From Blastocatellia bacterium (GTDB lineage Bacteria > Acidobacteriota > Blastocatellia > UBA7656), in assembly GCA_963765495.1 (NCBI GenBank), contig CAVXWP010000009.1, positions 192,001-256,000 of the forward strand: a stretch of 64,000 nt of DNA. Reading direction: 5' to 3'. Positions 9,690-57,975 of this stretch are shown in pieces. The notes below the pieces were generated by a model. That model was not told the origin of the DNA and ran no database searches. It saw only the letters and a program-made list of their open reading frames with translations. The position numbers were made by a program, and so were the translations under genes. Position 1 is the first letter of the stretch, and each line of letters opens with the position of its first letter.

Positions 9690-10631
9690 CTACTGGTCCT
9701 GAGCAGCCATCAGGCGATGCAGGGCCTCTTTCATCTGCCCGCGCGTCTCTTCATCCTTTTCAACAGTAATGGCCGTGTTTAGCGCTTCGACAGACGACTT
9801 GTCTCCTATGTCGGCAAGCGAAAGCGCGGCTGCGACCTTTACCATCTTGTAGTCGTCTTTCAGCAACAGGGTGAGCGGCCCCACGGCATCTCTGCTACGC
9901 AGCAGACCGAGCGCAGTGGCCACGGCTGAACGCACATCGGGAGCGTCATCCTTCACCATCGGTGAGAGTTGAGCCAGAGCGCGTGTGTCCTTGAGAGAAC
10001 CGAGTCCGAGAACTGCGGCTCCACGGACGCTTGGGCTTGAATCTCGAAGCGCCGCAATCAACGGGTCAATTGCGCGGGGGTCGCCGAGTTGTCCGAGCAC
10101 CCTGGCAGAGGCGCTCCGCACAAACGCGACGTCATCTTTCAGAGAGGTCAGCAGAGGTTCGACGGCGCGTTTATCATCCAGCTGCCCGAGCGAATTTATA
10201 GCCGCGGCGCGCACGTTCGCATCCTGATCCTGCAAGGTGGCGATGAGTGGTTCCACAGCGCGCCGGTCATCCATGTCGCCGAGCATCTCCGCCGCATCTC
10301 GCCGGTCATCAGCCGATTGACTCTTCAGTTTCTGCAAAACTTTGGCCAGGTCATCGGACTCATCGTCGCCCGCCCGCGCATCGTTGACCTGTTTAGCCAC
10401 GGGGGGAATTTGCCACAGAGCCACAGAGACACAGAGATTTTTATAATCTTTTCTCTGTGCCTCTGTGTTTCTGTGGCTATTCTGAACTCCTACGTTGACT
10501 TCGCTTGTTTGAATTTGAGACCGAATCGGCAGGGGGCCCCGATCAAGCGGCAGAGCTTTGGCCTGCGCGCTTACGAAGATCAAGCACAGCGTCAAAATTC
10601 CTATTCGCGTGCGACTTAAAAGAAGAGCCAT
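9690..10631 (-). CDS. Exported HEAT (PBS-lyase-like) repeat protein
   Basis: Signal peptide and about six 31-aa repeats of the form LxDxxxxVRxxAxxxLGxLxDxRAVxPL. Confidence 0.85.
   Translation of the reverse strand: MALLLSRTRIGILTLCLIFVSAQAKALPLDRGPLPIRSQIQTSEVNVGVQNSHRNTEAQRKDYKNLCVSVALWQIPPVAKQVNDARAGDDESDDLAKVLQKLKSQSADDRRDAAEMLGDMDDRRAVEPLIATLQDQDANVRAAAINSLGQLDDKRAVEPLLTSLKDDVAFVRSASARVLGQLGDPRAIDPLIAALRDSSPSVRGAAVLGLGSLKDTRALAQLSPMVKDDAPDVRSAVATALGLLRSRDAVGPLTLLLKDDYKMVKVAAALSLADIGDKSSVEALNTAITVEKDEETRGQMKEALHRLMAAQDQ
10412..10478. repeat. 8-nt-unit palindromic element (CACAGAG / CTCTGTG) in frame inside the HEAT gene
   Basis: AGCCACAGAGACACAGAG (10419-10436) pairs with CTCTGTGTTTCTGTGGCT (10461-10478) with one mismatch, around an AT-rich spacer. 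Confidence 0.75.
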
Positions 10632-42673: not shown

Positions 42674-43687
42674 TTACTTCATATTAGCCCGGGCCACGGG
42701 TCCGAGTTTCTCCGATGTGACCGGTATCGCCTGCTGAAAGAATGCCACCACGCGGGCATCATAATCGAGCGATGCCTTATCATAAAGACGGTTCACCCGG
42801 GTATTTTCGACTTCGATTATGGCCTTTTGTTCTTTGGCCTGATCGTGCAGTTCTCGCGTCATTTCCTCCTGCGGGCCGGAGTCCTTCGAGGTGATAAAGA
42901 GGATGCGCCTCCCGGTCGTAGAGGATAAGGCTTCCATAGCCGTTCCCGAATCCTCACGTCTCATGAAGTAAAGCTGCATCGCGAGTTCGTTCAATTTTTG
43001 CGTCCATTCGGAATCTACAAGTCGGCTCACCCATCCGTTGCCGCTTCCTACAAGCTGTTTGGTGCGAAAGTTGATAAAACGGGCCACGTCCGGGTAAACC
43101 GAATCAGCCACGACCGCCTTTACAACCGGGTCTTGCGACGAGGCCACGAGAGAAATGTATCCGCCAAGATCAACACCGTAAAGACCTACGCGCCCGTCAA
43201 GAAGCTCTTCCCCTTTGTCGGTCTTGAGCCCCTTGAGGAACTTTATCGCCGATAGCAGATCATCTTTTTCGTAGGTTCCAAGCCCCGACCATTTGACCGG
43301 GCTCTCACCGTGTCCGCGCATGTCGTAAACGAGTACGTGATAGCCCGCTTTCCACAGATCGAATGTCAGCGTAAGCAACTCCGAGCGATTAGAGCCGTAA
43401 CCATGAGAGAGTATTATTGCGGGCGCGGGCCGTCCCCGGCTCAAAAACCAGCCGACCGATTCCGTGGAATCCATGTTCTTCCACTTCTCATCGCTCCACA
43501 TCGGTTTTTGCAGTATCACTTGAAAATCACGCGGCGAGCCGTATAGCTCCGTCTTCGCCGGGTGCGCCAGCCGGTTCACAAGATAAAAATCCAGGGCGAC
43601 TACGCCTACACCGAGCACGAGCACGGCTGGGATAAAGACCCACATCACCCGCTTCAGGATGGTCTTCTTCTTCTTCGAAATAATCAT
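42674..43687 (-). CDS. Membrane-anchored alpha/beta hydrolase fold protein (nucleophile elbow GVDLGG)
   Basis: SHGYG, YDMRGHGES. Asp at the usual Ser position. Confidence 0.8.
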   Translation of the reverse strand: MIISKKKKTILKRVMWVFIPAVLVLGVGVVALDFYLVNRLAHPAKTELYGSPRDFQVILQKPMWSDEKWKNMDSTESVGWFLSRGRPAPAIILSHGYGSNRSELLTLTFDLWKAGYHVLVYDMRGHGESPVKWSGLGTYEKDDLLSAIKFLKGLKTDKGEELLDGRVGLYGVDLGGYISLVASSQDPVVKAVVADSVYPDVARFINFRTKQLVGSGNGWVSRLVDSEWTQKLNELAMQLYFMRREDSGTAMEALSSTTGRRILFITSKDSGPQEEMTRELHDQAKEQKAIIEVENTRVNRLYDKASLDYDARVVAFFQQAIPVTSEKLGPVARANMK

Positions 43688-43812: not shown

Positions 43813-44523
43813 TTAGGCGGGCGGGCGGGCGGGCGGCGCAGACTCACCTTCGACCCAGACCGCACCGTCTTCGAAGTATTCCTTCTTCCAGATCGGGACT
43901 ATTTTCTTGAGCCGATCAATGGCGTACCGGCAGGCTTCAAATGCTACATTTCGGTGCGCGGAGGCCACTGTGATGACTACGCTCGACTCGCTTATCTCGA
44001 CGCGACCGAGACGATGAATTATGCCAAGCCGGTTGATGGGCCATTGCTCGCGCACTTCGCGCCCTATCTGCGCCATCGTGAGCAGGGCCATCTCCGTGTA
44101 GCCTTCGTATTCGAGATAAAGCGTAGCCCGCCCCTTTGTATTATCGCGAGCCACACCGTCAAATATCACGACTGCGCCCGATGGCCCCCTCACGAGCCTC
44201 GCCCTTAACCCCGGAATGTCAATCGGTTCGCGCGTGATCTCGAATATGTCTTCTTCGGCCTCCCCCCCGCTCACGGGGGGAAGTATCGCCAGCCGGTTGT
44301 TTTCAGCCAGAGGCTCGCTCCGAGAAGCATACTCTTCGTTTACCGCAAACAACAGACTCTCTTCCATAGCGGCAAGTTTAGGGTGGCGAGATTTGAGCGC
44401 GGCAAAGGCTGTCGCAACCGTGGCAGGTTGTTCAAGCTCAAGCTCAAGGCTCTCGGCCCCGGCCATCTCTCGCGCCTGCCCGAATAAAAGAACGGTGACC
44501 TTTATGCTGTTTGTCGTTGTCAT
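43813..44523 (-). CDS. moaX: MoaD-MoaE fusion molybdopterin synthase (MoaX type)
   Basis: MoaD part ends ILPPVSGG. MoaE motifs GAVVIFDG, LEYEGY, HRLG, SAHR, LKKIVPIWKKE. Confidence 0.92.
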   Translation of the reverse strand: MTTTNSIKVTVLLFGQAREMAGAESLELELEQPATVATAFAALKSRHPKLAAMEESLLFAVNEEYASRSEPLAENNRLAILPPVSGGEAEEDIFEITREPIDIPGLRARLVRGPSGAVVIFDGVARDNTKGRATLYLEYEGYTEMALLTMAQIGREVREQWPINRLGIIHRLGRVEISESSVVITVASAHRNVAFEACRYAIDRLKKIVPIWKKEYFEDGAVWVEGESAPPARPPA

Positions 44524-44535
44524 ATTTCCCTGCCC

Positions 44536-44637
44536 GTGATGCGTGATGCGTGAAGAGTGATGCGTGACTTTCAGGAAGTTTGCCGGTTAAACCGACTTGC
44601 AAGTCTGGTAAATCACCAATCACGTATCACTCTTCAC
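44536..44637. repeat. 7-nt-unit inverted repeat element (GTGAT[TG]C)n...(GAATCAC)n
   Basis: Same family at 50427, 58471 and 63583. Confidence 0.85.
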
Positions 44638-44638
44638 T

Positions 44639-45055
44639 TCAATCCTCTCCTACAATAGTTATCGCAATATCTTCGACGTTCAAGCCCGCGATTTTGAAAG
44701 CGCGAAGCTCGACTCTCGGCTCAAGCGAGAGGATGAAATAGTATGCCTCCGGGTAAAAGGCCATCTGAACGTCGGCCGCCGAGGGGTATGCCAGGGTGCG
44801 CGGATGGGAATGATATATGCCAAGCATTCTCTGACCCGCGTTGCGAATCGTTCGCATGGCGGCAAACAAATCCTCGGGCGAGGCGAAATATTTGGACTCT
44901 CGCCGCTCGGCCTCGTTGCGAAGCGGGTGCGCTTCCGTAATAACCCCATCGCGCCCGCTCAACAGACCGCAACACTCAAAAGGACGAGCCTCGAAGGCGT
45001 GCTCTCTTATAGCGCCCTCCACTCTGCTTGTTATGCTGATTGATAACCGACTCAC
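44639..45055 (-). CDS. JAMM/MPN+ (M67, Mec-like) metalloprotease
   Basis: PFECCGLL and YHSHPRTLAYPSAAD (E...HxH-x7-SxxD). Confidence 0.92.
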   Translation of the reverse strand: MSRLSISITSRVEGAIREHAFEARPFECCGLLSGRDGVITEAHPLRNEAERRESKYFASPEDLFAAMRTIRNAGQRMLGIYHSHPRTLAYPSAADVQMAFYPEAYYFILSLEPRVELRAFKIAGLNVEDIAITIVGED

Positions 45056-45140
45056 GCGCCCTTCGGCCTCCTACAAAATCTTACCTGATCTCTCCCGCAC
45101 ATTCTATCACGACCCTTTACCATTTTTTTCGGAACCGAAG

Positions 45141-45184
45141 TACGAAGATTTTCGTTGACAAATACGAAACGTTTCGTGTAGGCT
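45141..45184 (+). promoter_or_regulatory. sigma70 promoter with two palindromic operators (probable BlaI-family sites)
   Basis: TTGACA 45155-45160 and TAGGCT 45179-45184. TACGAA-N4-TTCGT at 45141-45155 and 45163-45177, 22 bp apart. Confidence 0.75.
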
Positions 45185-45220
45185 GGGTGGCAACAAAAAT
45201 CAGACTAAGGAGGCTCTAAG

Positions 45221-45610
45221 GTGAGCAGACGAAACCCGCCGAGGCCGACCGACGCAGAGCTGGCCATATTGCGAGTGTTATGGCAGCGCGGCCCAAGCAC
45301 AGTCCGGGATGTACAGGAAGAGTTAAATCAGGTGAGACCCACCGGGTACACTACGGTCCTAAAGCTGTTGCAAATCATGACGGAGAAACAGCTGGTTCGT
45401 CGCGACGAGCGCCAGAGGACACATATCTATCAGGCGCGGCTGTCGGAAGAGATGACACAGCAGCAACTGGTAGGCGATTTGCTCGACAGGGCTTTTGGAG
45501 GGTCGGCATCTCAGCTTGTCATGCAGGCGCTCGCCGCAAGGAGCGCATCGGCCGAAGAGGTGGCCGAGATACGGCAGCTTCTGAGCGAGCTTGAAGGAGG
45601 CGCAAAGTGA
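45221..45610 (+). CDS. BlaI/MecI/CopY-family repressor
   Basis: PTDAELAILRVLWQRGPSTVRDV, YTTVLKLLQIM, FGGSASQLV. Confidence 0.95.
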   Translation: MSRRNPPRPTDAELAILRVLWQRGPSTVRDVQEELNQVRPTGYTTVLKLLQIMTEKQLVRRDERQRTHIYQARLSEEMTQQQLVGDLLDRAFGGSASQLVMQALAARSASAEEVAEIRQLLSELEGGAK

Positions 45611-47754
45611 ATATGATCGAAACCATTATGGCGCACCCGACCGTGCAGGCTTTGGGCTGGGCCTTGCTGCATTTCATCTGGCAGGGGGCCGTGGTGGCAA
45701 CTCTTTCAGCAGGCATCATGACATTATTGCGGCACCGCTCGGCCAATTCGAGGTATTTGACCGCTGTTGCGGCGATGCTTTTGATGCTGGCTCTGCCGGT
45801 AGTTACGTTTTTCCTGCTGAGCGCGCCTTCTCAAAAACCGTCCGCTGAAATCACTCCTCTCATCTCGGATGAAAACATTATGTTGCCCGCTCCTTCGGTG
45901 AGCGAGATCGCTTCCGGGCAACAGATGACCTCTATGCCTGCGCTTTCGCGTCCCTGGTTGGAGATGATGTATGGGCGAATCGAGCCGGTGTTGCCGTCAC
46001 TGATAACGATCTGGCTTTTGGGCGTGCTTCTGCTTTCGCTCAGATTGCTGGGCGGTTGGATAAACGCGCAATACATAAAGAGGCGACGTTCGCGCCCCGT
46101 GGACTCTGAATGGCAGGAGCGGCTCAAATATCTGACCCGAAAGCTTGGAATAAGCCGAACCGTGAGTATGGTTGAATCATTTCTGGTGCAGGTGCCGACC
46201 GTCATAGGCTGGCTGCGCCCGGTAATACTGTTGCCCGCGAGCGCCCTCACAGGTCTGACCGCAGAACAACTGGAGGCGATACTCGCGCACGAACTCGCTC
46301 ACATCCGCCGTCACGATTATCTGATAAACCTTTTGCAGACGGTCATAGAAACGCTGCTTTTCTATCATCCGGCGGTCTGGTGGGTCTCGCATCGCATGCG
46401 GGTCGAACGCGAGAATAGCTGCGATGACGTAGCGGTCGCCCTCTGCGGAGACGTGTTGACATATGCTCGCGCTCTGACCGAGCTCGAGCAGCTTCGCAGC
46501 AACGGGCCGCAACTGGCCGTAGCTGCAACCGGAGGTGTTCTCTTGAATCGTATCCGCCGCCTTGCAGGCATCCCCTCCTCGCATTCGAATCGTTTCCCCG
46601 GCCTCTTTGCGGGGCTCATCGTAATCTCGGCGCTCGTCACAGTAGCCACGGGCGCGCACATGACTATAGTTGCTACCGAAGCAATTACTCCCGACCCGGC
46701 AACTCTTTCACAATCGGAATCTTCCCGCGCAACAAGAGAGAAGGTAGAGCAAAAGATAGCAGCCGCGATAAATCAGAAGCTCTCTTCCGAGAAGACCGAC
46801 GCGCAGTCCGAAGAGATCAGAACAAAAGCAGAACTCGCGGCGGCAAACGCCGTCAAAGTCGGGATGACCGAAGCGGAAATAGCTACGGCGGTCGAAACAG
46901 CCGTACAGGCCGTCCTGGCAGATGAAAAGGATTCCGACTCGGATGAAAATGATGTTGAAAACGATAATGAAACCGATCAGGAGCCTTCGCCCGAAAAACA
47001 GGATCAGAAGAATCGCATCGTGGAGGCTTTTATCGGCGCTCTAAAGGACGAAGACGCAAACGTCCGCGCGCAGGCAGCCTCGGCGCTTGGGTCGAGCAGG
47101 GACAAGCGCGCGGTCGATCCTCTGATCGCGGTCCTGAATGATCAGAGCCCACATGTGAGGATGCAGGCGGCATCTTCACTCGGCGATATCAAGGACTCGC
47201 GCGCGGTCGCCCCTCTCATTGCCGCGTTAAAAGATGAAGACGCAAACGTTCGCATGCAGGCCGCCTCATCGCTCGGCGACATCAGAGACAAGAGCGCCGT
47301 AGAAGGATTGATGGCTGCCTTAAAGGACGAGAATGCAAACGTTCGCATGCAGGCCGCTTCGGCCCTCGGAGATTTGAGGGATGCTCGCGCCGCTGACGCG
47401 CTGGTCCTTGCTTTGAAGGATGCCAGTCCAAACGTCAGGCTACAGGCAGCCTCGGCGCTCGGAGACTTGAGAGACTCGCGCGCCGTTGACGGCCTGCTGA
47501 TCGCGTTGAAGGATGAAAACGCAAACGTTCGCATGCAGGCCGCTTCGGCTCTGGGCGACCTGAGAGACGCACGCGCCGTAGAGCCTCTGATCACGGCCTT
47601 GAAAGATCAGAATCCGAACGTACGGATGCAGGCGGCGTCCGCGCTCGGAGACCTGAGAGATGGTCGAGCGGTTGATGCCTTGATCGCGGCTCTGAAAGAC
47701 GAAAACGCCAATGTCAGACGACAGGCAGCTTCCGCGCTTTCGGATATTAAATAA
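45607..47754 (+). CDS. BlaR1-like M56 metallopeptidase with C-terminal HEAT repeats
   Basis: LGWALLHFIWQG, GWLRPVILLP, AHELAHIRRHD, ERENSCDD, TM, acidic linker, then eight 31-aa repeats. GTGA overlap with the repressor gene. Confidence 0.93.
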   Translation: MNMIETIMAHPTVQALGWALLHFIWQGAVVATLSAGIMTLLRHRSANSRYLTAVAAMLLMLALPVVTFFLLSAPSQKPSAEITPLISDENIMLPAPSVSEIASGQQMTSMPALSRPWLEMMYGRIEPVLPSLITIWLLGVLLLSLRLLGGWINAQYIKRRRSRPVDSEWQERLKYLTRKLGISRTVSMVESFLVQVPTVIGWLRPVILLPASALTGLTAEQLEAILAHELAHIRRHDYLINLLQTVIETLLFYHPAVWWVSHRMRVERENSCDDVAVALCGDVLTYARALTELEQLRSNGPQLAVAATGGVLLNRIRRLAGIPSSHSNRFPGLFAGLIVISALVTVATGAHMTIVATEAITPDPATLSQSESSRATREKVEQKIAAAINQKLSSEKTDAQSEEIRTKAELAAANAVKVGMTEAEIATAVETAVQAVLADEKDSDSDENDVENDNETDQEPSPEKQDQKNRIVEAFIGALKDEDANVRAQAASALGSSRDKRAVDPLIAVLNDQSPHVRMQAASSLGDIKDSRAVAPLIAALKDEDANVRMQAASSLGDIRDKSAVEGLMAALKDENANVRMQAASALGDLRDARAADALVLALKDASPNVRLQAASALGDLRDSRAVDGLLIALKDENANVRMQAASALGDLRDARAVEPLITALKDQNPNVRMQAASALGDLRDGRAVDALIAALKDENANVRRQAASALSDIK
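47041..47751 (+). repeat. 93-bp coding tandem repeats (HEAT units)
   Basis: LKDENANVRMQAASALGDLRD-type unit x8. Confidence 0.9.
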
Positions 47755-47761
47755 GAAGCCG

Positions 47762-47784
47762 GAATCGGTCTTCGCGGCCGATTC
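47762..47784 (+). terminator. Hairpin after the M56 gene (weak terminator or stabiliser)
   Basis: GAATCGGTC-TTCGC-GGCCGATTC with no clean U-tract. Confidence 0.4.
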
Positions 47785-47991
47785 AAATTTAATTACGCTA
47801 TCACTGTTTTAGCCGAACACGGTTAATTTTTCGAAAAGTCCAAAAGCCGTACAAAATCGGTGAAAACCTTTTTGTGCGGCAGAAACAGATGACGACTTTC
47901 GCCGTCACTCAGGTGAGGTCTGTCCGCTCTCCGCTCTCGAATTTCAAATCTCAGATTTGAGATTACGGAACGGAGAAGCAAGGGGAAAACC

Positions 47992-50430
47992 ATGGAGACG
48001 CTGCTGCAAGACTTTCGTTATGGTTTTCGAACGCTTGTGAAAAACTCCGGCTTCACAGCGGTGGCGGTGCTTGCGCTCGCTCTCGGTATCGGAGCAAATA
48101 CGGCGATCTTCAGCGTAGTCAACAGGGTGCTGCTCCGGCCTTTGCCTTATGAAAATCCCGATCAACTCGTGATGATATGGGAGAGAAATCTTTCCGGCGA
48201 TCAGAAACAGAGTCAGGATTCGCCCGTTACCTTTACCGACTGGAAAGAGCAACATCAGATATTCGAAAAGATAGCCGGGTGGTGGTATCCGCAGATCAAT
48301 CTGACAGATCAGACGGGCGAGCCCGAGCGCGTCCGCACGATAGATACCACGGATGATTTCTTCTCGGTGCTTGGGGTCCAGCCTCTTCTGGGGCGCACAT
48401 TCCTGCCCGGAGAGGACCGCCCCGGCGGCGAGAGTCTGGCCGTTCTCAGCTACGACCTGTGGCAGCGCAGATTTGGCGCGGACCCGAATATCACAGGCAA
48501 ATCAGTCACGCTCGACGGGCGCTCTCATCAGGTGATTGGAGTGATGCCTGCGGGGTTCAACTTCCCCGAAAATACACAGGTCTGGCGACCGCTCGGATGG
48601 GACCCGGCCCGTCACATCAGAAGCGCGCGCTTCTTTGAAGTAGTTGCGCGACTGAAGCCCGGCGTGACCGTTGAACGCGCTCAATCGGAACTTGACGCGC
48701 TGGCCGGTCGCATCGAACAGGAATACCCGCAGACAAATACCGGCTGGGGTGTCTTTGTCATAACGCTTCACAACCAGATCGCGGGCAATTTCCGCATCGC
48801 ACTGTTTATTCTTTTGGGAGCCGTCTCTCTTGTGCTGTTGATAGCCTGCGCAAACGTCGCAAATCTGCTGCTTGCACGCGCCGGAGCCAGAGAGAAAGAA
48901 GTAGCGATTCGCCTTGCGCTCGGAGCCACTCGCCTCCGTCTTGTTCGTCAGCTTCTGACTGAAAGTATATTGCTTGCGATACTCGGCGGCGCGCTGGGGC
49001 TGCTTCTGGCATACGCCGGGGGCAATCTCTTGATGGCCGTCAATCCCATAGCCATTCCGCGTTTCGACGGGCTTCAGATCGACAGCCGGATGCTTGTCTT
49101 CACCATCGCTCTCACACTTTCGACCGGGCTGATATTCGGCATAGTTCCCGCCTTGCTGACATCAGGGGCAGACCTGAATCAGACGCTCAAAGAAGGCGGG
49201 CGGGATTCGAGAGCAGGCGCGAGCGGTCGTCGCGTGCGCGGGGCTCTCGTGGTCTCTGAGATAGCAATCGCCCTGATGCTGTTGATCGGGGCGGGGCTTT
49301 TGCTGAAGAGTTTCCTTCGCCTTGAGCAGACCGAGACGGGCTTCAATCCGTCAGGTCTTCTGACTCTGAATTTGCAACTGCCCGCGTCGAGCTACCCCGA
49401 GTGGCCTCAGGTAGCGGAATTCTATTCGCAGCTACTCGAACGGATCAAGACTATACCCGGCGTCGAATCAGCCGACGCGACGGCCTTCCTCCCGTTGGAC
49501 AAGGGCTGGCCCATCGCGTTTGAAATCCCCGGCCAACCGCCTCCGCAACCCGGCGAAGAACAGCGTGTGCAATATCATCAGGTGACGCCGGGCTACTTCG
49601 GCACCATGGGAATACCCTTGCTTGCCGGGCGCGAATTCCGAGAGCAGGAAGCTGCCTCGCGCCCCGGCGTAGTCATAATCAATGAGGCGATGGCGCAAAG
49701 GTACTGGCCCGATGAAAAACCCGTGGGCAAACACCTTATAAACAGGGCAAGGGCAATCGGGCCTCTTGCCCGATACCTGCCCGAGTCCTTTGATATCGAA
49801 GTAGTGGGAATCGTGGGCAATCTTAAGAACCGGGGACTCAGCCAGGAGGCCGAACCCGCCATGTTTTTCCCACAGCGCCAGTTCGCCGTCAGGAGTATGA
49901 GTCTTGTCGTTCGGGCGGGAGGAAACCCTCTGTCGATTGTCGGCGCGGTGCGAAATGAAATCCGGGTGGCGGACAGGAATTTGCCCGTCTCAGGGATCAG
50001 GACGATGAATGAGGTTCTCGGAGACAGCACAGCCGAATCCCGGTTCAGTCTTCTCCTGCTCGGATTGTTTGCCGCGCTTGCGCTGATCCTTGCGATGGTG
50101 GGCATCTATGGCGTTCTCAGTTATTCGGTCACACAGCGCAAACACGAAATCGGTATTCGCATGGCACTGGGCGCAAGTCGTGGTGATGTCATGAAGCTGA
50201 TTCTCGGCGAAGGGTTCCGGCTTGCACTTCTGGGGACCGGCAGTGGCCTGATCGGAGCCCTTGCGTTGACCCGCGTGATGAGGAGCCTGCTTTTCGGTGT
50301 GAGCCCGGCCGACCTGACTACTTTTCTGGGCGTCTCGCTTTTACTTGGCGTAGTGGCGCTTCTGGCCTGTTATCTGCCCGCGCGCCGCGCCACTCGAATA
50401 GACCCTATGGTGGCGCTCAGATATGAGTGA
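47992..50430 (+). CDS. ADOP-type duplicated MacB/FtsX ABC permease
   Basis: [68 protein letters not shown]. Confidence 0.95.
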
Positions 50431-50528
50431 TCCGTGATTCGTGAAGAGTGATTCGTGACTCCAGGCGAGCCCTCTTGTTAATGAAATGGAGCAGATCAGG
50501 AAATCACGAATCACGAATCACGGATCAC
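50427..50528. repeat. 7-nt-unit inverted repeat element
   Basis: GTGATTC units and GAATCAC units. The first unit contains the permease stop codon. Confidence 0.85.
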
Positions 50529-50564
50529 TGCTAACCCCAAATTTGAGATCGAAGGAGAGAGAAT

Positions 50565-51785
50565 ATGCAAATCAGTCTTATAAAGAGAGCCGGATCGACT
50601 TTCGGCATTATGGTTATCCTCAGTTTTGTGAGCGTGGGTGTGATGGTCCATGCCCAGTTGAATAATCAGAAAACGCAATCAGCCGCGACAGACGATGTGA
50701 AAGCAAATATCGAGGCGTTGCGATCTCAGGATGCGGTAAAGAGGGCGGCTGCCGCTTACGCACTTTCAAAACAGGGCGCTAAGGCTGTCGCCGCCATACC
50801 TGCGCTGATAGGGCTGCTGGGCGATGCCACCCCGGTTGACCCGCGCCTCTACAGAGACAAGGATTCCTGGTGCAACAACTGTCAATGGGAAGATTATTCT
50901 CCGGGCAAAGAGGCGGCCATTGCTCTTACAGACATTGGCGACCCGGCTGTCGAGCCGCTGATTGCCGCGCTCAACAGCACGGAATCGACGGCGCGCAAAA
51001 ACGCCGCGTGGGCGCTTGGAGCCATTGGCGATGACAGGGCTGTTATGCCTCTGACCGCGTCTCTGAAAGATCAGGCTCCCGATGTCAGAGAGCAGGCCGC
51101 GTGGGCAAGCGGAGCGATAGGAAGCAGTCGCTCGGTAGAGGCTTTGAATGCCGCGTTGACCGATACGAGCGCGGGCGTTCGCAAGCAATCGGCGTGGGCG
51201 CTCGGCGCTATCGGGAACAAAGGCGGCGTAACCGGCTTGATCGGCGCGCTTGGCGACACGGACCCGGATGTCAGAGAACAAGCCGCGTGGGCGCTCGGCG
51301 CTATCGGAGATGGTGAGGCCGCCGTGGCGCTGAGTTCTGCGTTGAAAGACGATTACGCCGAGGTCCGCAAACAGGCCGCGTGGGCGTGCGGAGCAATTGG
51401 CGACAGGCGCTCGGTAGCGAGTCTGGGCGCGGCGCTCACGGATATGAATGCCGGTGTGCGAGAGCAAGCCGCGTGGGCGCTTGGAGCCATTGGGGATAAC
51501 GGGGCCGTGGATGCGTTGAACAACGCTCTTAGAGATACTAACCCGGATGTGCGCAAGCAGGCAGCCTGGGCGCTTGGCGCGATAGGGAGCAACCGCGCGG
51601 TCGATTACTTGATCGCTTCGTTAAAAGACGAAGACTCTGACGTGAGAGAGCAGGCCGCGTGGGCGCTCGGCGCTATCGGCGACAACCGCGCATCAGACGC
51701 GCTCAGCGTAGCCTTGAAAGACAAGGATACGAAAGTGCGAAGACAGGCCGCGTGGGCACTGAGCGTTGTGGGATTTGAGAAGTAA
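50565..51785 (+). CDS. Secreted HEAT-repeat protein
   Basis: AAGGAG RBS, signal peptide (VHA), CNNC insert, nine VRxQAAWALGAIG repeats. Confidence 0.9.
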   Translation: MQISLIKRAGSTFGIMVILSFVSVGVMVHAQLNNQKTQSAATDDVKANIEALRSQDAVKRAAAAYALSKQGAKAVAAIPALIGLLGDATPVDPRLYRDKDSWCNNCQWEDYSPGKEAAIALTDIGDPAVEPLIAALNSTESTARKNAAWALGAIGDDRAVMPLTASLKDQAPDVREQAAWASGAIGSSRSVEALNAALTDTSAGVRKQSAWALGAIGNKGGVTGLIGALGDTDPDVREQAAWALGAIGDGEAAVALSSALKDDYAEVRKQAAWACGAIGDRRSVASLGAALTDMNAGVREQAAWALGAIGDNGAVDALNNALRDTNPDVRKQAAWALGAIGSNRAVDYLIASLKDEDSDVREQAAWALGAIGDNRASDALSVALKDKDTKVRRQAAWALSVVGFEK

Positions 51786-51816
51786 TTGATCGGCTGGCAC
51801 TGGCAGGGGAAACATC

Positions 51817-54231
51817 ATGGAAACTTTGTTGCAAGACTTCCGCTACGGGTATCGAATGCTCATAAAGCGTCCCGGATTTGCGGCCATCGCCGTGCTTGCG
51901 CTCGCGCTTGGGATCGGCGCTAATACGGCGATCTTCAGCGTAGTCAACGGCGTGCTGCTGAGGTCGCTTCCCTACAGCGGGCCTGACCGGCTGGTCATGG
52001 TCTGGGAACACAACTATGTCAGAGGCCGCGACCGCAACGTGGTGTCGCCTGCCAATTTTCTCGACTGGCAAAACCAGAATCACGTATTCGAAGAGATGGC
52101 GGCGATAATCAGTTTCCGCATAAACCTGACCGGCGCGGGCGAACCTGTAGAGTTGCCGTGTCAGATCGTAAGCCGCGACTTCTTTTCCGTTCTGGGAGTG
52201 CAGCCGATCATAGGTCGAGCCTTCACCGAAGAAGAGTGCCGACCTGAAAGCAACTACGCCGCGATACTGAGCCATCGACTGTGGCAAAGCCGGTTCGGAA
52301 GCGACCCGGAAATCATCGGCAAGTCAATCACGCTCAACGGAAAGAGCTATTCGGTTGTGGGCGTAATGCCGCCGGATTTCAATTACCTGAACAAGGAAAC
52401 CGAAGTCTGGATCCCTTATGGCATAAACCCGGCTACTGACTATCGAAAGGTATCGGGCCGTTTCCTTACCTCTGTAGCGCGATTGAAACCCGGCGTCTCG
52501 ATTGAACAGGCACAGGCGGAGATGTCTGCGATAGCCGCGCAGTTGGAAAAGACCTACACCGATTTCAACTCGGGCTGGGGCGTAAACCTTGTTCCGATCC
52601 ACGAGCAGGTCGTAGGCAAAGTGAGGCCGATCATTTTGATACTGCTCGGGGCCGTGGCCTTTGTACTGCTGATTGCCTGCGCAAACGTAGCCAATCTGTT
52701 GTTGGCTCGCGCTGCCTCGCGCCAGAAAGAGATGGCCCTGCGAACGGCGCTCGGAGCCGCGCGGCGGCGGATAATCAGACAATTGCTCACGGAAAGCCTG
52801 TTGCTCGCCGTGCTTGGCGGAGTGGGCGGATTGATTCTGGCCTACTGGGGGCTAAGGTTGCTTGTCGCGCTTGCCCCCCGAGAGATCCCACGCCTCGACG
52901 AGACGGGGATTGATTTTCGTGTGCTGGCTTTTACTCTTGGGGTTTCGATTCTTACCGGGCTGATCTTCGGGTTGTTGCCCGCGCTTCAGGCTTCAAAGCC
53001 GGATCTGAACGACGCGCTCAAGGAAGGCGGCAGAAGCGGCGCGGGCGCGGTCCGCAGCCGGACGCGAAATGCATTCGTCGTCGCAGAGGTCGCGCTGTCG
53101 CTCATCCTCCTGATAGGCGCGGGATTGATGATAAGAAGTTTCCTGCAACTTCAACAGGTCAATCCCGGATTCAACGGGCAAAATCTCCTGACAATGAGAG
53201 TGTTGCTTCCGGGCTCGACCTACACCGAAGACCAGCAGCGTTACACCTTTTTTGAGCAGGCCGAGCAACGCATCGCCGCCTTGCCCGGTGTTACCTCTGT
53301 TGGCTCGGTCAGTTTCCTGCCCCTGACCGGCCCGGGATCGGCCACCTCTTTTTATGTCACGGATCGGCCCGAACCGCCCCCTGGTGAAAAACCCGTTACC
53401 AACGTTCGAGTGATCTCCGGCGATTACTTTAAGACCATGGGGATTCCGCTTCTGAAAGGGAGACTCTTTACAGAAGGCGATACGAATGACTCTCCGAGAG
53501 TGCTGATAATCAGCGAGACGATGGCCCGCGAGTATTTCCCCGACGAAGACCCTCTAGGTAAGCGCCTCTCGATCAGTTGGGGTGATGACAGACCGGACGA
53601 GATCATCGGCGTAGTCGGAGACATCAGGGCCGAATCCCTTGACGGCGAGATTCGCCCGATGATCTACTGGCCCAATCGCAGAGAGACATATTCGTTTATG
53701 AATCTGCTTGTGAGAACCTCTACCGATCCGTTGAGCCTCGCGACTGCCGCGCAAAATGAGATCAAAGCGATAGACCCAAATCAACCTGTAGCTGAAATCA
53801 AGACGATGGAAGAGATCGTCTCCGAGTCGATAGCGGGGCCGCGTTTCAATATGCTGCTGCTCGCAATCTTTGCCGGGGTCGCGCTCGTGCTCGCCTCCGT
53901 AGGCATTTACGGCGTTATGTCTTACACCGTAACACAACGCACGCACGAAATCGGCCTGCGGATGGCGCTGGGCGCGCAAGCAGGCGACATCTTGAAACTG
54001 GTCGTAGGTCAGGGGATGATCCTTGCCTCAGCAGGCGTAATAATAGGTCTGATAGCCGCGCTATTGATGACATCGGTATTGTCGGGTCTGCTGTTTGCCG
54101 TGACGGCAACAGACCCGCTGACCTTCGCGGGCATCTCTTTGTTGCTGATAGCGGTGGCGCTTTTGGCCTGCTATATCCCGGCGCGGCGCGCAATCAAAAT
54201 AGACCCCGGCGTGGCGCTCAGATATGAATAG
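51817..54231 (+). CDS. Second ADOP-type duplicated MacB/FtsX ABC permease
   Basis: Same signature motifs. Paralog of 47992-50430. Confidence 0.95.
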   Translation: METLLQDFRYGYRMLIKRPGFAAIAVLALALGIGANTAIFSVVNGVLLRSLPYSGPDRLVMVWEHNYVRGRDRNVVSPANFLDWQNQNHVFEEMAAIISFRINLTGAGEPVELPCQIVSRDFFSVLGVQPIIGRAFTEEECRPESNYAAILSHRLWQSRFGSDPEIIGKSITLNGKSYSVVGVMPPDFNYLNKETEVWIPYGINPATDYRKVSGRFLTSVARLKPGVSIEQAQAEMSAIAAQLEKTYTDFNSGWGVNLVPIHEQVVGKVRPIILILLGAVAFVLLIACANVANLLLARAASRQKEMALRTALGAARRRIIRQLLTESLLLAVLGGVGGLILAYWGLRLLVALAPREIPRLDETGIDFRVLAFTLGVSILTGLIFGLLPALQASKPDLNDALKEGGRSGAGAVRSRTRNAFVVAEVALSLILLIGAGLMIRSFLQLQQVNPGFNGQNLLTMRVLLPGSTYTEDQQRYTFFEQAEQRIAALPGVTSVGSVSFLPLTGPGSATSFYVTDRPEPPPGEKPVTNVRVISGDYFKTMGIPLLKGRLFTEGDTNDSPRVLIISETMAREYFPDEDPLGKRLSISWGDDRPDEIIGVVGDIRAESLDGEIRPMIYWPNRRETYSFMNLLVRTSTDPLSLATAAQNEIKAIDPNQPVAEIKTMEEIVSESIAGPRFNMLLLAIFAGVALVLASVGIYGVMSYTVTQRTHEIGLRMALGAQAGDILKLVVGQGMILASAGVIIGLIAALLMTSVLSGLLFAVTATDPLTFAGISLLLIAVALLACYIPARRAIKIDPGVALRYE

Positions 54232-54252
54232 AGGTTAAGAGAAACCGCGACG

Positions 54253-54330
54253 GCCACGGATGATTGTGGATAAGAACGGGTGGGAACCAACCATTCAAAT
54301 ACCTTTCGGGCATCCATAATCATCCGTGGC
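54253..54330. repeat. 9-nt-unit inverted repeat element
   Basis: GCCACGGATGATTGTGGAT ... ATCCATAATCATCCGTGGC between convergent genes. Confidence 0.75.
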
Positions 54331-54502
54331 TCGGTCTCCATTTAGCCAGCGACTCGTCGGGATGAAACCGGTCATAGCAATTCAGACACAGAGTCTGCGT
54401 CTCTAATTCGCAATCCTCTTCCTCGCATTCCCATTCAATTTCACAGCCCCTGCACAGGTGCGAGTGATAGCCTCTCAGAGCTTCTTCGGTTCCGTCTGCC
54501 AT
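54320..54502 (-). CDS. Small acidic Cys-rich (putative metal-binding) protein
   Basis: HxCxxC...C...C...CxxC, 8 nt downstream of the BON gene. Confidence 0.55.
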   Translation of the reverse strand: MADGTEEALRGYHSHLCRGCEIEWECEEEDCELETQTLCLNCYDRFHPDESLAKWRPSHG

Positions 54503-54510
54503 AAAAACGA

Positions 54511-54972
54511 TTATGCTGAGACATTGATGTTATTTACAACGTTCTTTACGCCCTCGACGCTTTTGGCTACCTGTTCAGCCCTGCTTTTTTGCGAGTCGTT
54601 GGGAACGGTTCCGCTCAATGTCACTACATCGTTTTCCACGTCTACATTAATAGTCACATCGTCGAGATCGTCGGCGTAAGCAAGCGCGGAGCGGGTCTTG
54701 GTCCACAGCCACAGGTCATTTGCGCCCGTCCCTATCTTGCGCCCGAGGTCTTTTGCCTGTTTCTCGTATGACTCTTTATCTTTCTCATAATCCTCTTTCG
54801 AGATGTCGCGGGGGACGTTCTTGTTGCCGCGATTCGCTCTGGCGCTCTCGTTTTTGTTTGCTGCGGTGCGGTTGCTGTTTTCGTTCGTGTTGCCGTGCAT
54901 ATCACAGCCAAACGTAAAAGCAGCAATAAGCGCGAGGCTCGCAACCAGTACCATAAATTTCACTCTGTTCAT
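54511..54972 (-). CDS. BON-domain lipoprotein
   Basis: Lipobox-like TFGC, INVDVENDVVTLSGTV, VEGVKNVVNNI. Confidence 0.9.
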   Translation of the reverse strand: MNRVKFMVLVASLALIAAFTFGCDMHGNTNENSNRTAANKNESARANRGNKNVPRDISKEDYEKDKESYEKQAKDLGRKIGTGANDLWLWTKTRSALAYADDLDDVTINVDVENDVVTLSGTVPNDSQKSRAEQVAKSVEGVKNVVNNINVSA

Positions 54973-55158
54973 TGTTCACTCCTCTACGGCCCGGGAACGG
55001 TTTCCGATCCGGGCGCGGTTATTTTGTCAATCGTTGTCACTTTGAGTTCGCATCTCTCCATGCAGCGGTCACACTTTTGCCTTCGAACTTATGGAGCAAT
55101 AGGCGTGCCGCCAAAACAGGCTATTTGAGGCGCAAAACCATACTATTTCCACACGCGG

Positions 55159-55346
55159 GCGGATTGAATCGCTTCACATCATCCGGTTGCGTCGGTGTCA
55201 TTCGTGGCCTATTCCCACCAGGGCCATTCAGTTTTTGAGTAGCCCACAACAGGTGGAAGAAATGTTAAAAGTTGAGTTTAAGCAAAGGCGTGTTGAAATA
55301 GGCCGCGGATGACGCGGATGCGACGGATTTTCGCGGATCTGATTCG
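55159..55346. repeat. Degenerate 9-nt-unit (CGCGGAT) repeat arms
   Basis: AAATAGGCCGCGGATGACGCGGAT...CGCGGATCTGAT resembles 19330-19378. An inverted arm lies near 55180-55215. Confidence 0.55.
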
Positions 55347-55584
55347 AGTCTGCCCTTGATATTGTTGACCTTGCCCGATTGATAACGGACAATGATATAG
55401 TTCTATTGAAAGCTTAAAGTGTCGTGAATCGCTCGACAGGTTAAAATGCTGAGGTAAAGGCAATCCAACGACTCACCTTTACCCGTAGTCAGATTTGGAC
55501 TTCGGTTCCAGTTAGAGACAAGCTTAAAAACAAGCTCTTGAAATTTCAGACTTTAAGCGAATCACACAGCCTGGAGTAAATCTA

Positions 55585-57975
55585 ATGAAAAAGGCAGTAT
55601 TTTTTACAATCCCTCTAATCGCCTCCCTTCTCCTCACAACGAACGCTTTAGCCGGGCAACAAGATGAACGCGGGCGCGGCCTGAAGATAAAGGTGGGCGC
55701 GACGCCCGAAGAAGTAAAAGATGGGAAGCAGGCGGAAATTGGTTTGTGGGCCGTGCTGATCGGCGTGTCGCGTTATCAGATGGGAGATCAGAACGTTGAC
55801 GGCTACCGAATATCCAACCTCAAGAACGCGGCCGACGACGCGCAGTCGATCTATGATTTTCTCAAGAGTCCCGAAGGGGGCGGATTCCGCGATGAAAAAG
55901 ACGGCGGCCACATGATACTGCTCAAAGACGAGCAGGCGACAAAGGCAAATGTCGAAAGGGCGCTCGCCTCTTTGAAACAGGCAAAGCCAAACGATTATTT
56001 CGTGCTGTATATAGCGGCGCACGGCGCGCTTATCCCTTATCGCAAACCCGGCTCCAACACTACAGTAGATATTCCATACTTCGTGCTTTTCGACAGCGAC
56101 CTGCGCAACCCTGAAAACAGCATGCTCAAGATGGAAGCCTTTCGCCAGACGGTAAGCGAAGTGCCCGCCAAAAAAGGGCTGGTTCTGTCCGACACCTGTC
56201 ACAGCGGAGGCGTGCAGCTTGCCGGGCGCGACACATCAAATTCGTCGATTCGCGCCAATGCCCGCTATATCGAAGAGATGAACGAAGTGGCGAGCGGCGT
56301 CGGCTATATCTCTGCCGCCGATCAACTTGAGCAGTCCTTTGAGAACGACAATTTGAATCAGGGCGTGTTCACTTACTGCATGCTTCAGGGTCTTGCGGGC
56401 GATGCCGATACAAACTTTGACGGTAAGGTGACCTTCAACGAGCTTCAGGCCTACCTGCGCGATGAGGTGCCTCGCCTCACCGACAACAAGCAGCATCCAA
56501 AGGCCAACACCACGGCCATCGCCGCCAATTACCTGCCGCTTTCGGTAGTCAGCTATGCAGAAAATGTTGCCGCGACCGGCAACCCCGACGACTATGGATT
56601 GATGGTCATTCGCACGCCCGATGTGGACGGGGTCAAGGTAGCGATTGACGGAAAGGCGTTCGCCACATTCGACGCGGGAACTCAGCGCGCGGTGATGGTA
56701 AAAGTCGGCGCGCGCGATCTCACCTTTACAAAGGGAGATCTGAAACGCACGCTCAAGGCCACGGTCGATCACGAAAGACCGAAAATAGTCGAGGTCAATC
56801 TTACCTTTACCGAAAGCGACGAGGATTCGCTGGTAGAGCCTACCGATAAGGTCGTGGGCGTTTACCTGCCCGATGACAAAGAGCCGACCGGGGATGCGAA
56901 GGCTCTGTTTGTAAAAGGCGTTGACAGTTTTAACAAGCAGAAGTTCGAAGACGCAATCGAGCAGTTTAACCGGGCGGCGCAGGCAAACGGCGGTGGTTAT
57001 GCCGACGCGTTTGTTTATCGAGGCCGGGCCGAACAATCCCTGAGCCGCAAAGAGGCCGCCATAGCCTCTTTCAAGGCGGCGCTAGGGCTTCGCCCGACAG
57101 ATTTCGAGACCCAGACTCTGCTTGCGGAGGCCAAGTTCAACGCCGGGTATAACGTAGAGGAGGTTGTAAACGATCTGCGAAGCGTCATCAGACGCCATCC
57201 GAATTTCGATTATGCCCGCGTGGTCTATGGCGATGTGCTGTTATCGCGCAAAGATTTCGCTGCGGCAGAGCTTCAATTGAGGCGAGCCATAACTATCAAC
57301 CCGAAATCGCCGCCCGCGCATTTGATACTGGCCGATATATTGACCTATCAGGACTCGAAAGAGAAACAGAAACGAGCAGTCGAAGAGGCGGAAACAGCCA
57401 TTCAATTGTTCGATGAGGTTTCGCGAAAACAGGTCTCTACATCCGGGAGTCTGAAGCGGCTCTCAATTTCGCACCTGATATTCGGAGGCGGGCGCTATAC
57501 AAATGAACCGGCAGAGGCAGAAGCACACCACATACTGGGCAAGGCGCTCACGCGCATGGTCGAGCGTGATCTTACGATCAACGATCCCGACACCTATCTG
57601 AGCAAAGCCCGAACTCATCTGGATGAGGCGCTGAAGCTTGCCGAGAAACTCTCCGACAAGCATCGCCTCGTGCTTGTGCTCGACACTAGCGCGCAGAATT
57701 ATCTGCTGAAAGGCGACATCAAGCACGCTATTGAGGACGCGCAGCGGGCGCTGAAGATAAGCGATACGATGCCCGATCTGAAGGATTTTTACGAAGCTCA
57801 TTACACGCTTTATTCGGCCTACACAAGCGATCAGGAATTCTCGAAAGCCGCAGAGCACTTGCAGAGATTTATTCAGATAGCCGGTTCTCAATTGACCCCC
57901 GAAGAGCGTCAGGGGTACGAAGCGGAGTTGAAACGAATCAAGCGGATGAAGGACGCCAACCGGCAAAAGAATTAG
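55585..57975 (+). CDS. Exported caspase-family (C14) peptidase with PEGA-like and TPR regions
   Basis: Signal peptide, WAVLIGVSRY, AADDA, YIAAHG (His), SDTCHSG (Cys), GVFTY, DADTNFDGKVT, C-terminal TPRs. Confidence 0.9.
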   Translation: MKKAVFFTIPLIASLLLTTNALAGQQDERGRGLKIKVGATPEEVKDGKQAEIGLWAVLIGVSRYQMGDQNVDGYRISNLKNAADDAQSIYDFLKSPEGGGFRDEKDGGHMILLKDEQATKANVERALASLKQAKPNDYFVLYIAAHGALIPYRKPGSNTTVDIPYFVLFDSDLRNPENSMLKMEAFRQTVSEVPAKKGLVLSDTCHSGGVQLAGRDTSNSSIRANARYIEEMNEVASGVGYISAADQLEQSFENDNLNQGVFTYCMLQGLAGDADTNFDGKVTFNELQAYLRDEVPRLTDNKQHPKANTTAIAANYLPLSVVSYAENVAATGNPDDYGLMVIRTPDVDGVKVAIDGKAFATFDAGTQRAVMVKVGARDLTFTKGDLKRTLKATVDHERPKIVEVNLTFTESDEDSLVEPTDKVVGVYLPDDKEPTGDAKALFVKGVDSFNKQKFEDAIEQFNRAAQANGGGYADAFVYRGRAEQSLSRKEAAIASFKAALGLRPTDFETQTLLAEAKFNAGYNVEEVVNDLRSVIRRHPNFDYARVVYGDVLLSRKDFAAAELQLRRAITINPKSPPAHLILADILTYQDSKEKQKRAVEEAETAIQLFDEVSRKQVSTSGSLKRLSISHLIFGGGRYTNEPAEAEAHHILGKALTRMVERDLTINDPDTYLSKARTHLDEALKLAEKLSDKHRLVLVLDTSAQNYLLKGDIKHAIEDAQRALKISDTMPDLKDFYEAHYTLYSAYTSDQEFSKAAEHLQRFIQIAGSQLTPEERQGYEAELKRIKRMKDANRQKN

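Follow-up and report, generated by a model that had tools for sequence, protein, structure and literature searches.

The 64,000-nucleotide (nt) stretch CAVXWP010000009.1:192,001-256,000 of Blastocatellia bacterium GCA_963765495.1 (hereafter the window, i.e. the whole stretch analysed; its genome is labelled G000) contains, at 45141-54231, a gene pair of the BlaI/BlaR1 type, followed by two permeases of the ADOP family with a free HEAT-repeat protein encoded between them. The locus raises the question of what such a pair may sense and control, when a solenoid of HEAT repeats stands in the place of the penicillin-binding sensor and the neighbouring genes code for neither a beta-lactamase nor PBP2a. 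The answer that we favour, with a probability of about 0.55, is a BlaI/BlaR1-type proteolytic derepression switch, in which the HEAT solenoid has replaced the penicillin-binding sensor and the ADOPs and the free HEAT protein are the output.

Organization of the locus

The region 45221-54231 is filled by five co-oriented open reading frames (ORFs), all on the + strand, full length and without internal stops; named from their Pfam and NCBIfam matches, they follow the order BlaI repressor, M56-HEAT protease, ADOP1, HEAT protein and ADOP2 (Table 1). The start of the M56-HEAT gene overlaps the blaI stop by 4 nt, and the end of the cluster was placed at ADOP2 because the next gene, coding for a BON-domain protein (54511-54972), is convergent. 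No ABC_tran domain was found by a Pfam scan in any of the five proteins. An earlier interpretation based on the letters alone (the sequence-only reading) had described five co-oriented genes of these types and in this order, and the ORFs, the Pfam domains and the TIGR03434 matches bear it out.

Table 1. Coordinates (positions in the window) and strand of the genes, promoter elements and hairpins of the locus
Feature	Position	Strand	Description
Operator 1	45141-45155	.	Palindrome TACGAA-N4-TTCGT, TACGAAGATTTTCGT (predicted site); its last T also opens the -35 hexamer
-35 hexamer TTGACA	45155-45160	+	Between the operator cores
Operator 2	45163-45177	.	Palindrome TACGAA-N4-TTCGT, TACGAAACGTTTCGT (predicted site); inside the 18-nt promoter spacer
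Candidate -10 hexamer TAGGCT	45179-45184	+	Read from the sequence after the 18-nt spacer
blaI	45221-45610	+	BlaI-family winged-helix repressor, 129 aa; GTG start; AAGGAGG 8 nt upstream
M56-HEAT gene	45607-47754	+	Zinc protease of the M56 (BlaR1) type; eight HEAT repeats at the C-terminus
Hairpin	47762-47784	+	9 bp, -13.6 kcal/mol, z -1.9, no proper U-tract; 8 nt past the M56-HEAT stop
ADOP1	47992-50430	+	Duplicated MacB/FtsX-type permease; TIGR03434 1040.6 bits
Long hairpin	50431-50527	+	Heptamer repeats, -49.6 kcal/mol, z -5.2; after ADOP1
Free HEAT gene	50565-51785	+	HEAT-repeat solenoid with signal peptide (predicted), paralogue of the sensor ectodomain
ADOP2	51817-54231	+	Permease of the clade co-inherited with the free HEAT gene; TIGR03434 1087.4 bits
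Long hairpin	54245-54335	+	Heptamer-repeat element, -47.5 kcal/mol, z -5.45; after the ADOP2 stop, end of cluster

The repressor and the sensor

The first gene product matches Pfam Penicillinase_R (PF03965) at 1.1e-27 over profile positions 2-114 of 115, as well as the Protein Data Bank (PDB) structures of BlaI (2g9w at 2.5e-10 and 1sd4 at 1.4e-07) and of MecI; the winged-helix domain of the BlaI family is present. The second is identified as a protease by Peptidase_M56 (PF05569, 1e-34, residues 34-299), and its HELAH motif (227-231) and E269 align to HEYAH (201-205) and E242 of Staphylococcus aureus BlaR1 (8exs/8exp), residues that we take to be zinc ligands. The C-terminus is made of eight near-identical HEAT repeats of the VR-QAAS type (approximately residues 465-715; HEAT_2, 3.3e-56), and an acidic linker lies between this array and the last hydrophobic segment. 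Hydropathy revealed four such segments (23-41, 48-76, 124-153 and 329-357), all of them before the HEAT array, with 21 Lys+Arg residues in the protease loop vs. 0 at the N-terminus. By analogy with BlaR1, we infer from the four segments that the HEAT array would lie on the outer side of the cytoplasmic membrane.

The Pfam scan found no penicillin-binding domain PF00905 in this protein, and its score with NCBIfam blaR1_generic is 102 bits, vs. a cut-off of 400. Because it carries HEAT repeats, lacks a PF00905 match and falls below this cut-off, the M56-HEAT protein would work like BlaR1, but probably is no beta-lactam sensor. The claim that eight HEAT repeats stand in the place of the penicillin sensor is confirmed by the Pfam domains and by the repeat count.

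JGI already labels homologues of the protease, and HEAT_2 was found in 75 of the 120 closest M56 homologues listed (hand count); the fusion is therefore frequent in databases. It is not described, however: a literature search, with subscription journals and bioRxiv supplements outside its reach, returned nothing on M56-HEAT, nor on what ADOPs do. In a phylum survey of 401 genomes, which scored two candidates per genome only, 128 had any match (a tally that includes G203, G076 and G101, three genomes flagged as unpublished, which support none of the claims made here), and at least six genomes outside the family showed the M56-to-HEAT match in one open frame (G269, G409, G318, G106, G325 and G360).

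Promoter and operators

As the sequence-only reading had proposed, a TTGACA promoter with two TACGAA-N4-TTCGT palindromes precedes blaI, the hexamer lying one base off the place that had been implied. TACGAAGATTTTCGT and TACGAAACGTTTCGT are the sole exact matches to the palindrome within the window; with up to one mismatch, six matches were counted, whereas 100 shuffles gave 0.97 on average and never as many as six, and the full operator motif occurs nowhere else in the 7.3-Mb genome. A one-mismatch site at 31546 was taken as chance.

The same promoter design is found in relatives. Matches to the M56 part (E <= 1e-30; 33 matches, hereafter clade A) were present in 31 of the 52 other genomes of the family, and 31 blaI upstream regions could be extracted from the orthologous loci: 29 carry two operator cores, 20-22 base pairs (bp) apart around TTGAC, and the other two a single core. 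At the place of the candidate -10 hexamer, which a consensus promoter scan did not flag, relatives have TAGGAT, TACAAT or TATAAT. By phylogenetic footprinting, the palindromes are the predicted operators of an autoregulated BlaI promoter, i.e., dyad sites overlapping the promoter of their own gene, a trait of the BlaI/MecI/CopY family; the footprint also supports the view that the BlaI/M56-HEAT pair is a conserved, operator-controlled unit, apparently autoregulated in its design.

The free HEAT protein

The gene between the two permeases codes for a protein of approximately ten very regular repeats (HEAT_2, 1.7e-69), arranged as tandem two-helix units of about 31 residues; the protein has one N-terminal hydrophobic segment (residues 9-33), a predicted signal ending in VHA-Q, and it carries a CxxC loop. 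The HEAT array of the sensor is 47-50% identical to it. HEAT_2, the N-terminal segment and this identity agree with the earlier claim of a secreted protein of the sensor's repeat type located between two ADOPs. An AlphaFold2 model revealed a regular solenoid of helix pairs, with a predicted local distance difference test (pLDDT) value of 91.5, whose closest solved folds are artificial alphaRep binders (template-modelling (TM) scores of 0.86-0.92, root-mean-square deviations of 2.2-2.7 Å, 46-49% identity), the best of them with a TM score of 0.92 and 49% identity.

At one repeat position the window's sensor has S and the free protein W, in each repeat; the W-vs.-S difference was considered as a general distinction between sensors and free proteins and rejected, W being present in 72% of sensor repeats.

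The ADOP permeases and their ATPases

Both permeases are full-length and exceed by far the TIGR03434 cut-off of 622.3 bits. Each is an internal duplicate, consisting of two MacB_PCD and two FtsX stretches; by Pfam and hydropathy, there are eight hydrophobic segments and two periplasmic domains, which in ADOP2 span residues 45-265 and 446-672. Both halves keep the conserved cytoplasmic motif of the FtsX family as invariant alignment columns; from MacB structures, we take this motif to be the helix on which the ATPase docks. A tree was built of 75 ADOPs, 52 of them from G000, in which ADOP2 forms one clade with six other HEAT-adjacent ADOPs of relatives (support 0.989), and ADOP1, together with its orthologue in the closest relative (G026), is sister to this clade (support 0.961). 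From these positions in the tree, HEAT and ADOP2 appear to be inherited as a pair, while ADOP1, which G026 shares, appears to have arisen by a recent duplication in this lineage. The suggestion that the two permeases pair with each other is therefore not needed, each ADOP being already an internal duplicate and ADOP1 a lineage-specific one.

ADOPs are described as orphans, i.e., devoid of an adjacent ABC ATPase. The G000 genome contains 52-53 full copies in 20 loci; 49 of 52 have no adjacent ATPase, while two loci have one of MacB type. Each of the six PadR genes that exceed the cut-off immediately precedes an ADOP gene or array, so the usual link of ADOPs to PadR, which the sequence-only reading had mentioned, holds in this genome. 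Tandem arrays of 16 (C9:342863-387914) and nine ADOP genes (C7:148858-173536) were observed, each headed by a PadR gene.

No ABC ATPase is encoded within 45141-54231, as expected of an orphan ADOP locus, and the dedicated nucleotide-binding subunit, a trait of MacB-type (type VII) systems, is absent from it. However, the orphan state is unstable: the ADOP1 orthologue of G026 has an ATPase 62 nt upstream, and several relatives have an ABC-ADOP unit adjoining a BlaI/M56-HEAT pair. Four close paralogues of the G026 ATPase (72, 71, 69 and 62% identity) are encoded elsewhere in G000, and C2:219544, C9:720264, C1:1166334 and C4:237654 are candidate ATPases in trans. We infer that ADOPs use ATPases encoded in trans.

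Two loci of G000 encode MacB-type ATPases without a neighbouring permease (L085, C2:217437-220284, and L087, C9:720264-720980), one of them beside an HlyD-type adaptor; these are candidates for shared ATPases of the orphan ADOPs. At C4:234465-240966 (L086), genes for an extracytoplasmic function (ECF) sigma factor, a 273-aa single-pass protein, a 514-aa membrane-anchored HEAT-TPR protein, a MacB-type ATPase and an ADOP follow each other; this is one of the two loci with an adjacent ATPase, and a second case in G000 of an envelope regulator joined to HEAT and ADOP.

Synteny with the closest relative

Among 52 family genomes, the exact five-gene order is conserved in one, G026, the closest relative; the gene-order conservation on which the sequence-only reading had made itself depend stands for this genome, and does not extend to the others. 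The orthologues are one-to-one, with identities of 80% (BlaI), 54% (M56-HEAT), 67% (ADOP1), 67% (HEAT) and 69% (ADOP2), the next-best ADOP paralogues being about 52-55% identical. On its contig (L033), G026 encodes on one strand MoaE-ThiS, BlaI, M56-HEAT, a PF00144+DUF3471 hydrolase, a MacB-type ATPase, ADOP, a second PF00144+DUF3471 hydrolase, HEAT and ADOP.

The three extra genes of G026 sit where the window has gaps of 237 and 134 nt. The 237-nt gap aligns weakly to the spacer after the M56-HEAT gene of G026 (score 26, approximately 77 nt), and no alignment was obtained for the 134-nt gap. The two G026 hydrolases have a beta-lactamase fold and score 102 and 85 bits, vs. a cut-off of 415 for class C beta-lactamases; G000 is without an orthologue of either, its best matches being 31-34% identical. 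Since the syntenic locus of G026 encodes an ATPase, the absence of this gene would be a feature of G000 and not of the system, loss here and gain in G026 being both possible. The sequence-only reading was right that the locus has no ABC ATPase, but this is not a property of the system, considering the MacB/LolD-type ATPase found directly before the G026 orthologue of ADOP1.

G026 has another locus of interest (L034, on contig C546), which reads PF00144 hydrolase, clade-A BlaI, M56-HEAT, thioredoxin-like protein, TAP-like alpha/beta hydrolase, BlaI of a second clade (clade B, see below) and M56-HEAT, where the contig ends.

Linkage in other relatives

A family search with the free HEAT protein identified another group of BlaI/M56-HEAT pairs, split deeply from the first (clade B). 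Of the 20 loci fetched, 17 have a free HEAT gene immediately after the pair, and one more is cut by the contig end. As this search could be circular, a clade-B M56 domain was used as an independent query: 34 matches were found in 31 of the 52 genomes, and none in G000 (E <= 1e-40). Of 31 assessable loci, 27 encode M56-HEAT, and in 24 of these 27 the HEAT gene lies directly downstream (one gene between in one locus, no HEAT gene in two). The operons can be very tight: in G003 the gaps in the series BlaI/M56-HEAT/HEAT/ADOP2 measure 0, 41 and 2 nt, with ABC-ADOP directly upstream. The clade-B operator is TGCTAA-N4-TTAGCA, present twice around TTGACA at a distance of about 44 bp (L066, L068, L069, L073, L074, L081, L084 and others). 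Since clade B has an operator of its own, the two paralogous circuits appear to be insulated from each other.

The free HEAT proteins of clade B end in a long acidic (D-x)n stretch at the C-terminus, to which P-x repeats and a basic terminus are added; the window's protein has none of these; two Cys residues are conserved in them, where the latter has its CxxC loop instead.

A census of the best 80 free-HEAT loci, drawn from species representatives across all prokaryotes and for the most part labelled as Blastocatellia or Pyrinomonadaceae, with some Vicinamibacterales or other, gave the following counts, which are to be read as recurrence and not as a statistic, kin not being independent. An M56(-HEAT) gene is directly upstream in 36 loci, 14 of which read BlaI-M56HEAT-HEAT-ADOP; an ADOP gene is directly beside the HEAT gene in 21; the HEAT gene lies inside an ADOP array in six; and a PF00144 hydrolase gene is its neighbour in seven. 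As judged from gene order in many relatives, these data link both the free HEAT protein and permeases of the ADOP2 type to BlaI/M56-HEAT pairs. In addition, G000 has only two M56 genes in its 7.3 Mb, so that a chance adjacency of one of them to the HEAT-ADOP2 pair is very unlikely. The other M56 gene belongs to a BlaI/M56-TonB_C pair followed by MgtC (L001, C1:1153199-1156248), which does not share the operator.

A second repeat ectodomain

HEAT repeats are present in seven of the 33 clade-A members, and in the other 26 no Pfam domain follows M56. These 26 carry instead a repeat of about 29 residues, with the consensus ...LSxDDLVAMRIHGVxxEFIKE.KxxGY, for which no Pfam or NCBIfam family was found. 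By phmmer, 30 M56 proteins contain this repeat, none of them in the window's genome. In all 28 assessable loci, one or two proteins with a signal sequence and the same repeat are encoded directly downstream; in L035 (3001-7410), for instance, the downstream proteins match the M56 repeat with E 3e-57 and 3e-31. The divergent loci L178 and L180 have the same repeat layout (E 9e-54 and 3e-35) followed by two ADOPs, and five loci in all continue into ADOPs (L047, L056, L057, L178 and L180). An AlphaFold2 model of a protein with the 29-residue repeat showed a beta domain and eight two-helix repeats (pLDDT 87), with no good match in the PDB.

HEAT and the 29-residue repeat show the same gene order; thus, two unrelated solenoids obey one layout, [BlaI][M56-X][secreted X], often then ADOP. 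The analogy between the fold of the sensor and that of the induced protein, which the sequence-only reading had drawn for one locus, becomes a rule, which 24 of 27 HEAT loci and all 28 assessable loci of the 29-residue repeat follow.

Proposed mechanism and its alternatives

In the mechanism that we favour, an extracytoplasmic signal would engage the HEAT ectodomain and turn the protease on; BlaI would then be cut and leave its operators, and transcription from the promoter would rise. Read-through of the weak hairpin at 47762 could extend it to the three genes from ADOP1 to ADOP2; where relatives have tight operons, derepression would raise the levels of ADOP2 and of the free HEAT protein. 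This solenoid would bind the same thing as the sensor, and act as a sink or a carrier, while the ADOPs would be MacB-type mechanotransmission permeases working with the free solenoid in the periplasm. They may take ATP from a MacB-type ATPase encoded elsewhere, because G000 would have lost the ATPase of the locus itself. The regular repeats, together with the peptidase-like and beta-lactamase-fold hydrolases of the sister loci, point to a peptide-like or a periodic envelope ligand.

Several observations weigh against this switch as drawn. No operator was found before ADOP1, the free HEAT gene or ADOP2 by motif searches of the window and the genome, and the 237-nt gap (47755-47991) with its hairpin after M56-HEAT, both of which the sequence-only reading had noted and are confirmed, separates the regulatory pair from the rest; a very stable hairpin also follows ADOP1. 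The window's pair is of clade A, whereas the regulators of the tight BlaI-M56HEAT-HEAT-ADOP2 operons belong to clade B and have another operator, and the other close clade-A HEAT pairs (L034, L038, L041 and L051) lie beside hydrolases with no HEAT/ADOP genes; indeed, the neighbours of the nearest clade-A HEAT pairs code for PF00144 and S33-type hydrolases and a thioredoxin-like protein. The gene order shared with G026 includes MoaE-ThiS, an unrelated gene upstream of the locus, and conservation may hence reflect shared ancestry. In 31 of the 80 free-HEAT loci, no M56, ADOP or hydrolase gene is nearby, and the sensor is not closest to its own free partner, which ranks first in two of 25 pairs (median rank, about 6). 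Finally, the staphylococcal cleavage site, which we take to be Asn-Phe in the linker helix of S. aureus BlaI, aligns to Q-A in the window's repressor ("LVMQALAA"); however, BlaI of Mycobacterium tuberculosis (2g9w) has H-F at this place, and the cleavage site therefore varies within the family.

In a doubtful, but serious alternative, the adjacency is historical: the BlaI/M56-HEAT pair would be self-contained and autoregulated, with its targets, if any, elsewhere, ADOP1-HEAT-ADOP2 would be transcribed alone or silent, and the clade-B regulators would have been deleted from a BlaI-M56HEAT-HEAT-ADOP2 operon that was the neighbour of the clade-A pair in an ancestral locus. The G026 locus L034, with a clade-A pair and a clade-B pair 2.2 kb later, looks like such a neighbourhood, and G000 has no clade-B M56; the missing operators before ADOP1 and the HEAT gene, the hairpins at 47762 and 50431-50527, and the clade-A HEAT pairs L038, L041 and L051 devoid of HEAT/ADOP genes agree with it. 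On the other hand, all five genes are intact and co-oriented, and the arrangement has outlived a divergence of G000 and G026 to 54-80% protein identity. The hairpins are poor boundary marks: the one at 47762 is without a U-tract, and a 17-mer of the one at 50431-50527 occurs 124 times in the genome, with exact triple heptamers occurring 414 times. A locus-specific regulatory role of the ADOP1/HEAT hairpin was therefore rejected, this being a genome-wide heptamer-repeat element. As such hairpins are generic intergenic elements, with hundreds of copies in this genome, no boundary is marked at the ADOP1/HEAT junction, and the very stable hairpins after ADOP1 and ADOP2 say little for or against co-transcription.

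A different working of the same parts, which we regard as unlikely, is that the free solenoid, instead of being a sink for an outside ligand, keeps the protease inactive through like-with-like binding to the M56 ectodomain; an envelope compound or damage that occupies or removes it would release the switch, in the manner of the negative feedback of CpxP on CpxA. The arrangement of an M56 protein with repeat X next to a secreted X, found for two unrelated folds (24 of 27 and 28 of 28 loci), is what such titration by a paralogue would produce, and like-with-like selection is simpler than two independent ligand specificities; moreover, the regulated operon of relatives contains the gene of the free copy. 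However, sensors show no excess similarity to their own partners, as the ranks given above indicate, and in the window ADOP1 separates the free HEAT gene from the sensor gene. A fuller version may be imagined, and we give it little credit: as a general principle of sensing by BlaR-type proteases in Acidobacteriota, the switch would read unoccupied free solenoid, and no small ligand directly, the ADOPs would load, unload or expel the solenoid-cargo complex with an ATPase in trans, and this logic would have been built twice.

Least probable is a decayed island of antibiotic or peptide resistance, in which the ancestral eight-gene cluster of the G026 type was the working unit and the window is a remnant with unpowered permeases: the G026 hydrolases and ATPase fall exactly at the window's two gaps, G000 has no orthologue of the hydrolases, and PF00144 genes accompany the free HEAT gene in part of the census, but the change may also be a gain in G026, the 237-nt gap aligning only weakly to the G026 spacer, the five genes are full length and without stops, a missing ATPase neighbour is the norm of the family in G000, and the hydrolases score far below the class C cut-off.

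Other features of the window

Another HEAT-repeat protein of 313 aa is encoded at 9690-10631 (-), and a TPR protein of 796 aa, with a weak CHAT-domain match, at 55585-57975 (+). The alpha/beta hydrolase at 42674-43687 was examined as kin of the S33-type hydrolases of the sister loci and rejected (E 1.5 and 3e-4 over 55 residues). No Rfam match was found in 44500-55600 at E <= 0.1.

Comparison with known systems

In BlaI/BlaR1, the sensor of BlaR1 shares its fold with the co-regulated beta-lactamase. The locus resembles BlaI/BlaR1 and MecI/MecR1 of S. aureus and Bacillus licheniformis in that the repressor gene precedes and overlaps the gene of the M56 protease, the HEXXH motif and the downstream Glu align, two dyad operators lie over the promoter, and the fold of the sensor is shared with a neighbouring secreted protein, HEAT here and beta-lactamase there. 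It differs in the HEAT-solenoid sensor, in the operator TACGAA-N4-TTCGT, in the staphylococcal N-F site, which is not conserved, and in having a solenoid and permeases as the putative outputs, instead of a beta-lactamase or PBP2a.

Other systems depart from the classical scheme as well. According to the accessible part of a recent preprint (bioRxiv 10.64898/2026.04.08.717257), CenIR of Clostridioides difficile is an atypical BlaIR system, composed of M56 and BlaI without a transpeptidase sensor; the same part reports 254 M56 architectures, with about 6% of true beta-lactam sensors and 96% located within five genes of BlaI, and it names the nine architectures that have >=100 entries, none of them with HEAT. 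PvmSR of Pseudomonas aeruginosa is presented as another atypical BlaIR system in the accessible part of a second preprint (bioRxiv 10.64898/2026.08.03.742534). Neither a free secreted paralogue of the sensor nor a link to ADOP is described for CenIR and PvmSR in these parts of the two sources. Most BlaR1-like proteases are no beta-lactam sensors, and the locus and its relatives provide a testable rule for them, namely a repeat-solenoid ectodomain with a co-encoded free paralogue, accompanied by two apparently insulated operator codes, TACGAA-N4-TTCGTA and TGCTAA-N4-TTAGCA.

Compared with the ADOP/PadR arrangement, both permeases are clear members of TIGR03434, but their neighbour is BlaI/M56-HEAT and not PadR, and a predicted periplasmic HEAT protein lies between them; contrary to the orphan label of the family, relatives and two G000 loci have an adjacent MacB-type ATPase. 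The ADOPs are a very large acidobacterial family of paralogues, for which we know of no function since the family was defined. The locus may offer the first handle on them, with its defined regulator and periplasmic neighbour, and with evidence that an orphan ADOP has its ATPase encoded elsewhere, and does not dispense with one. If the output does bind or remove peptide-like compounds, this would bear on how the abundant Acidobacteriota of soil cope with antimicrobials.

MacB, LolCDE and FtsEX are type VII ABC systems that work with periplasmic partners. The ADOPs of the locus share with them the MacB_PCD and FtsX domains, the cytoplasmic motif in both halves and an extracytoplasmic partner encoded beside the permease; unlike them, the locus encodes no ATPase, the halves are fused, and the candidate partner is a HEAT solenoid, and not MacA, LolA or EnvC. 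As for the alphaRep binders and HEAT_PBS repeats, the model of the free HEAT protein matches alphaRep, a scaffold used for protein binding, but the protein is natural and presumably secreted, with approximately ten regular repeats, a signal sequence and the CxxC loop. Against these systems, what is new here is the rule that joins a sensor to its free paralogue, the two operator codes, and the link to the ADOP permeases.

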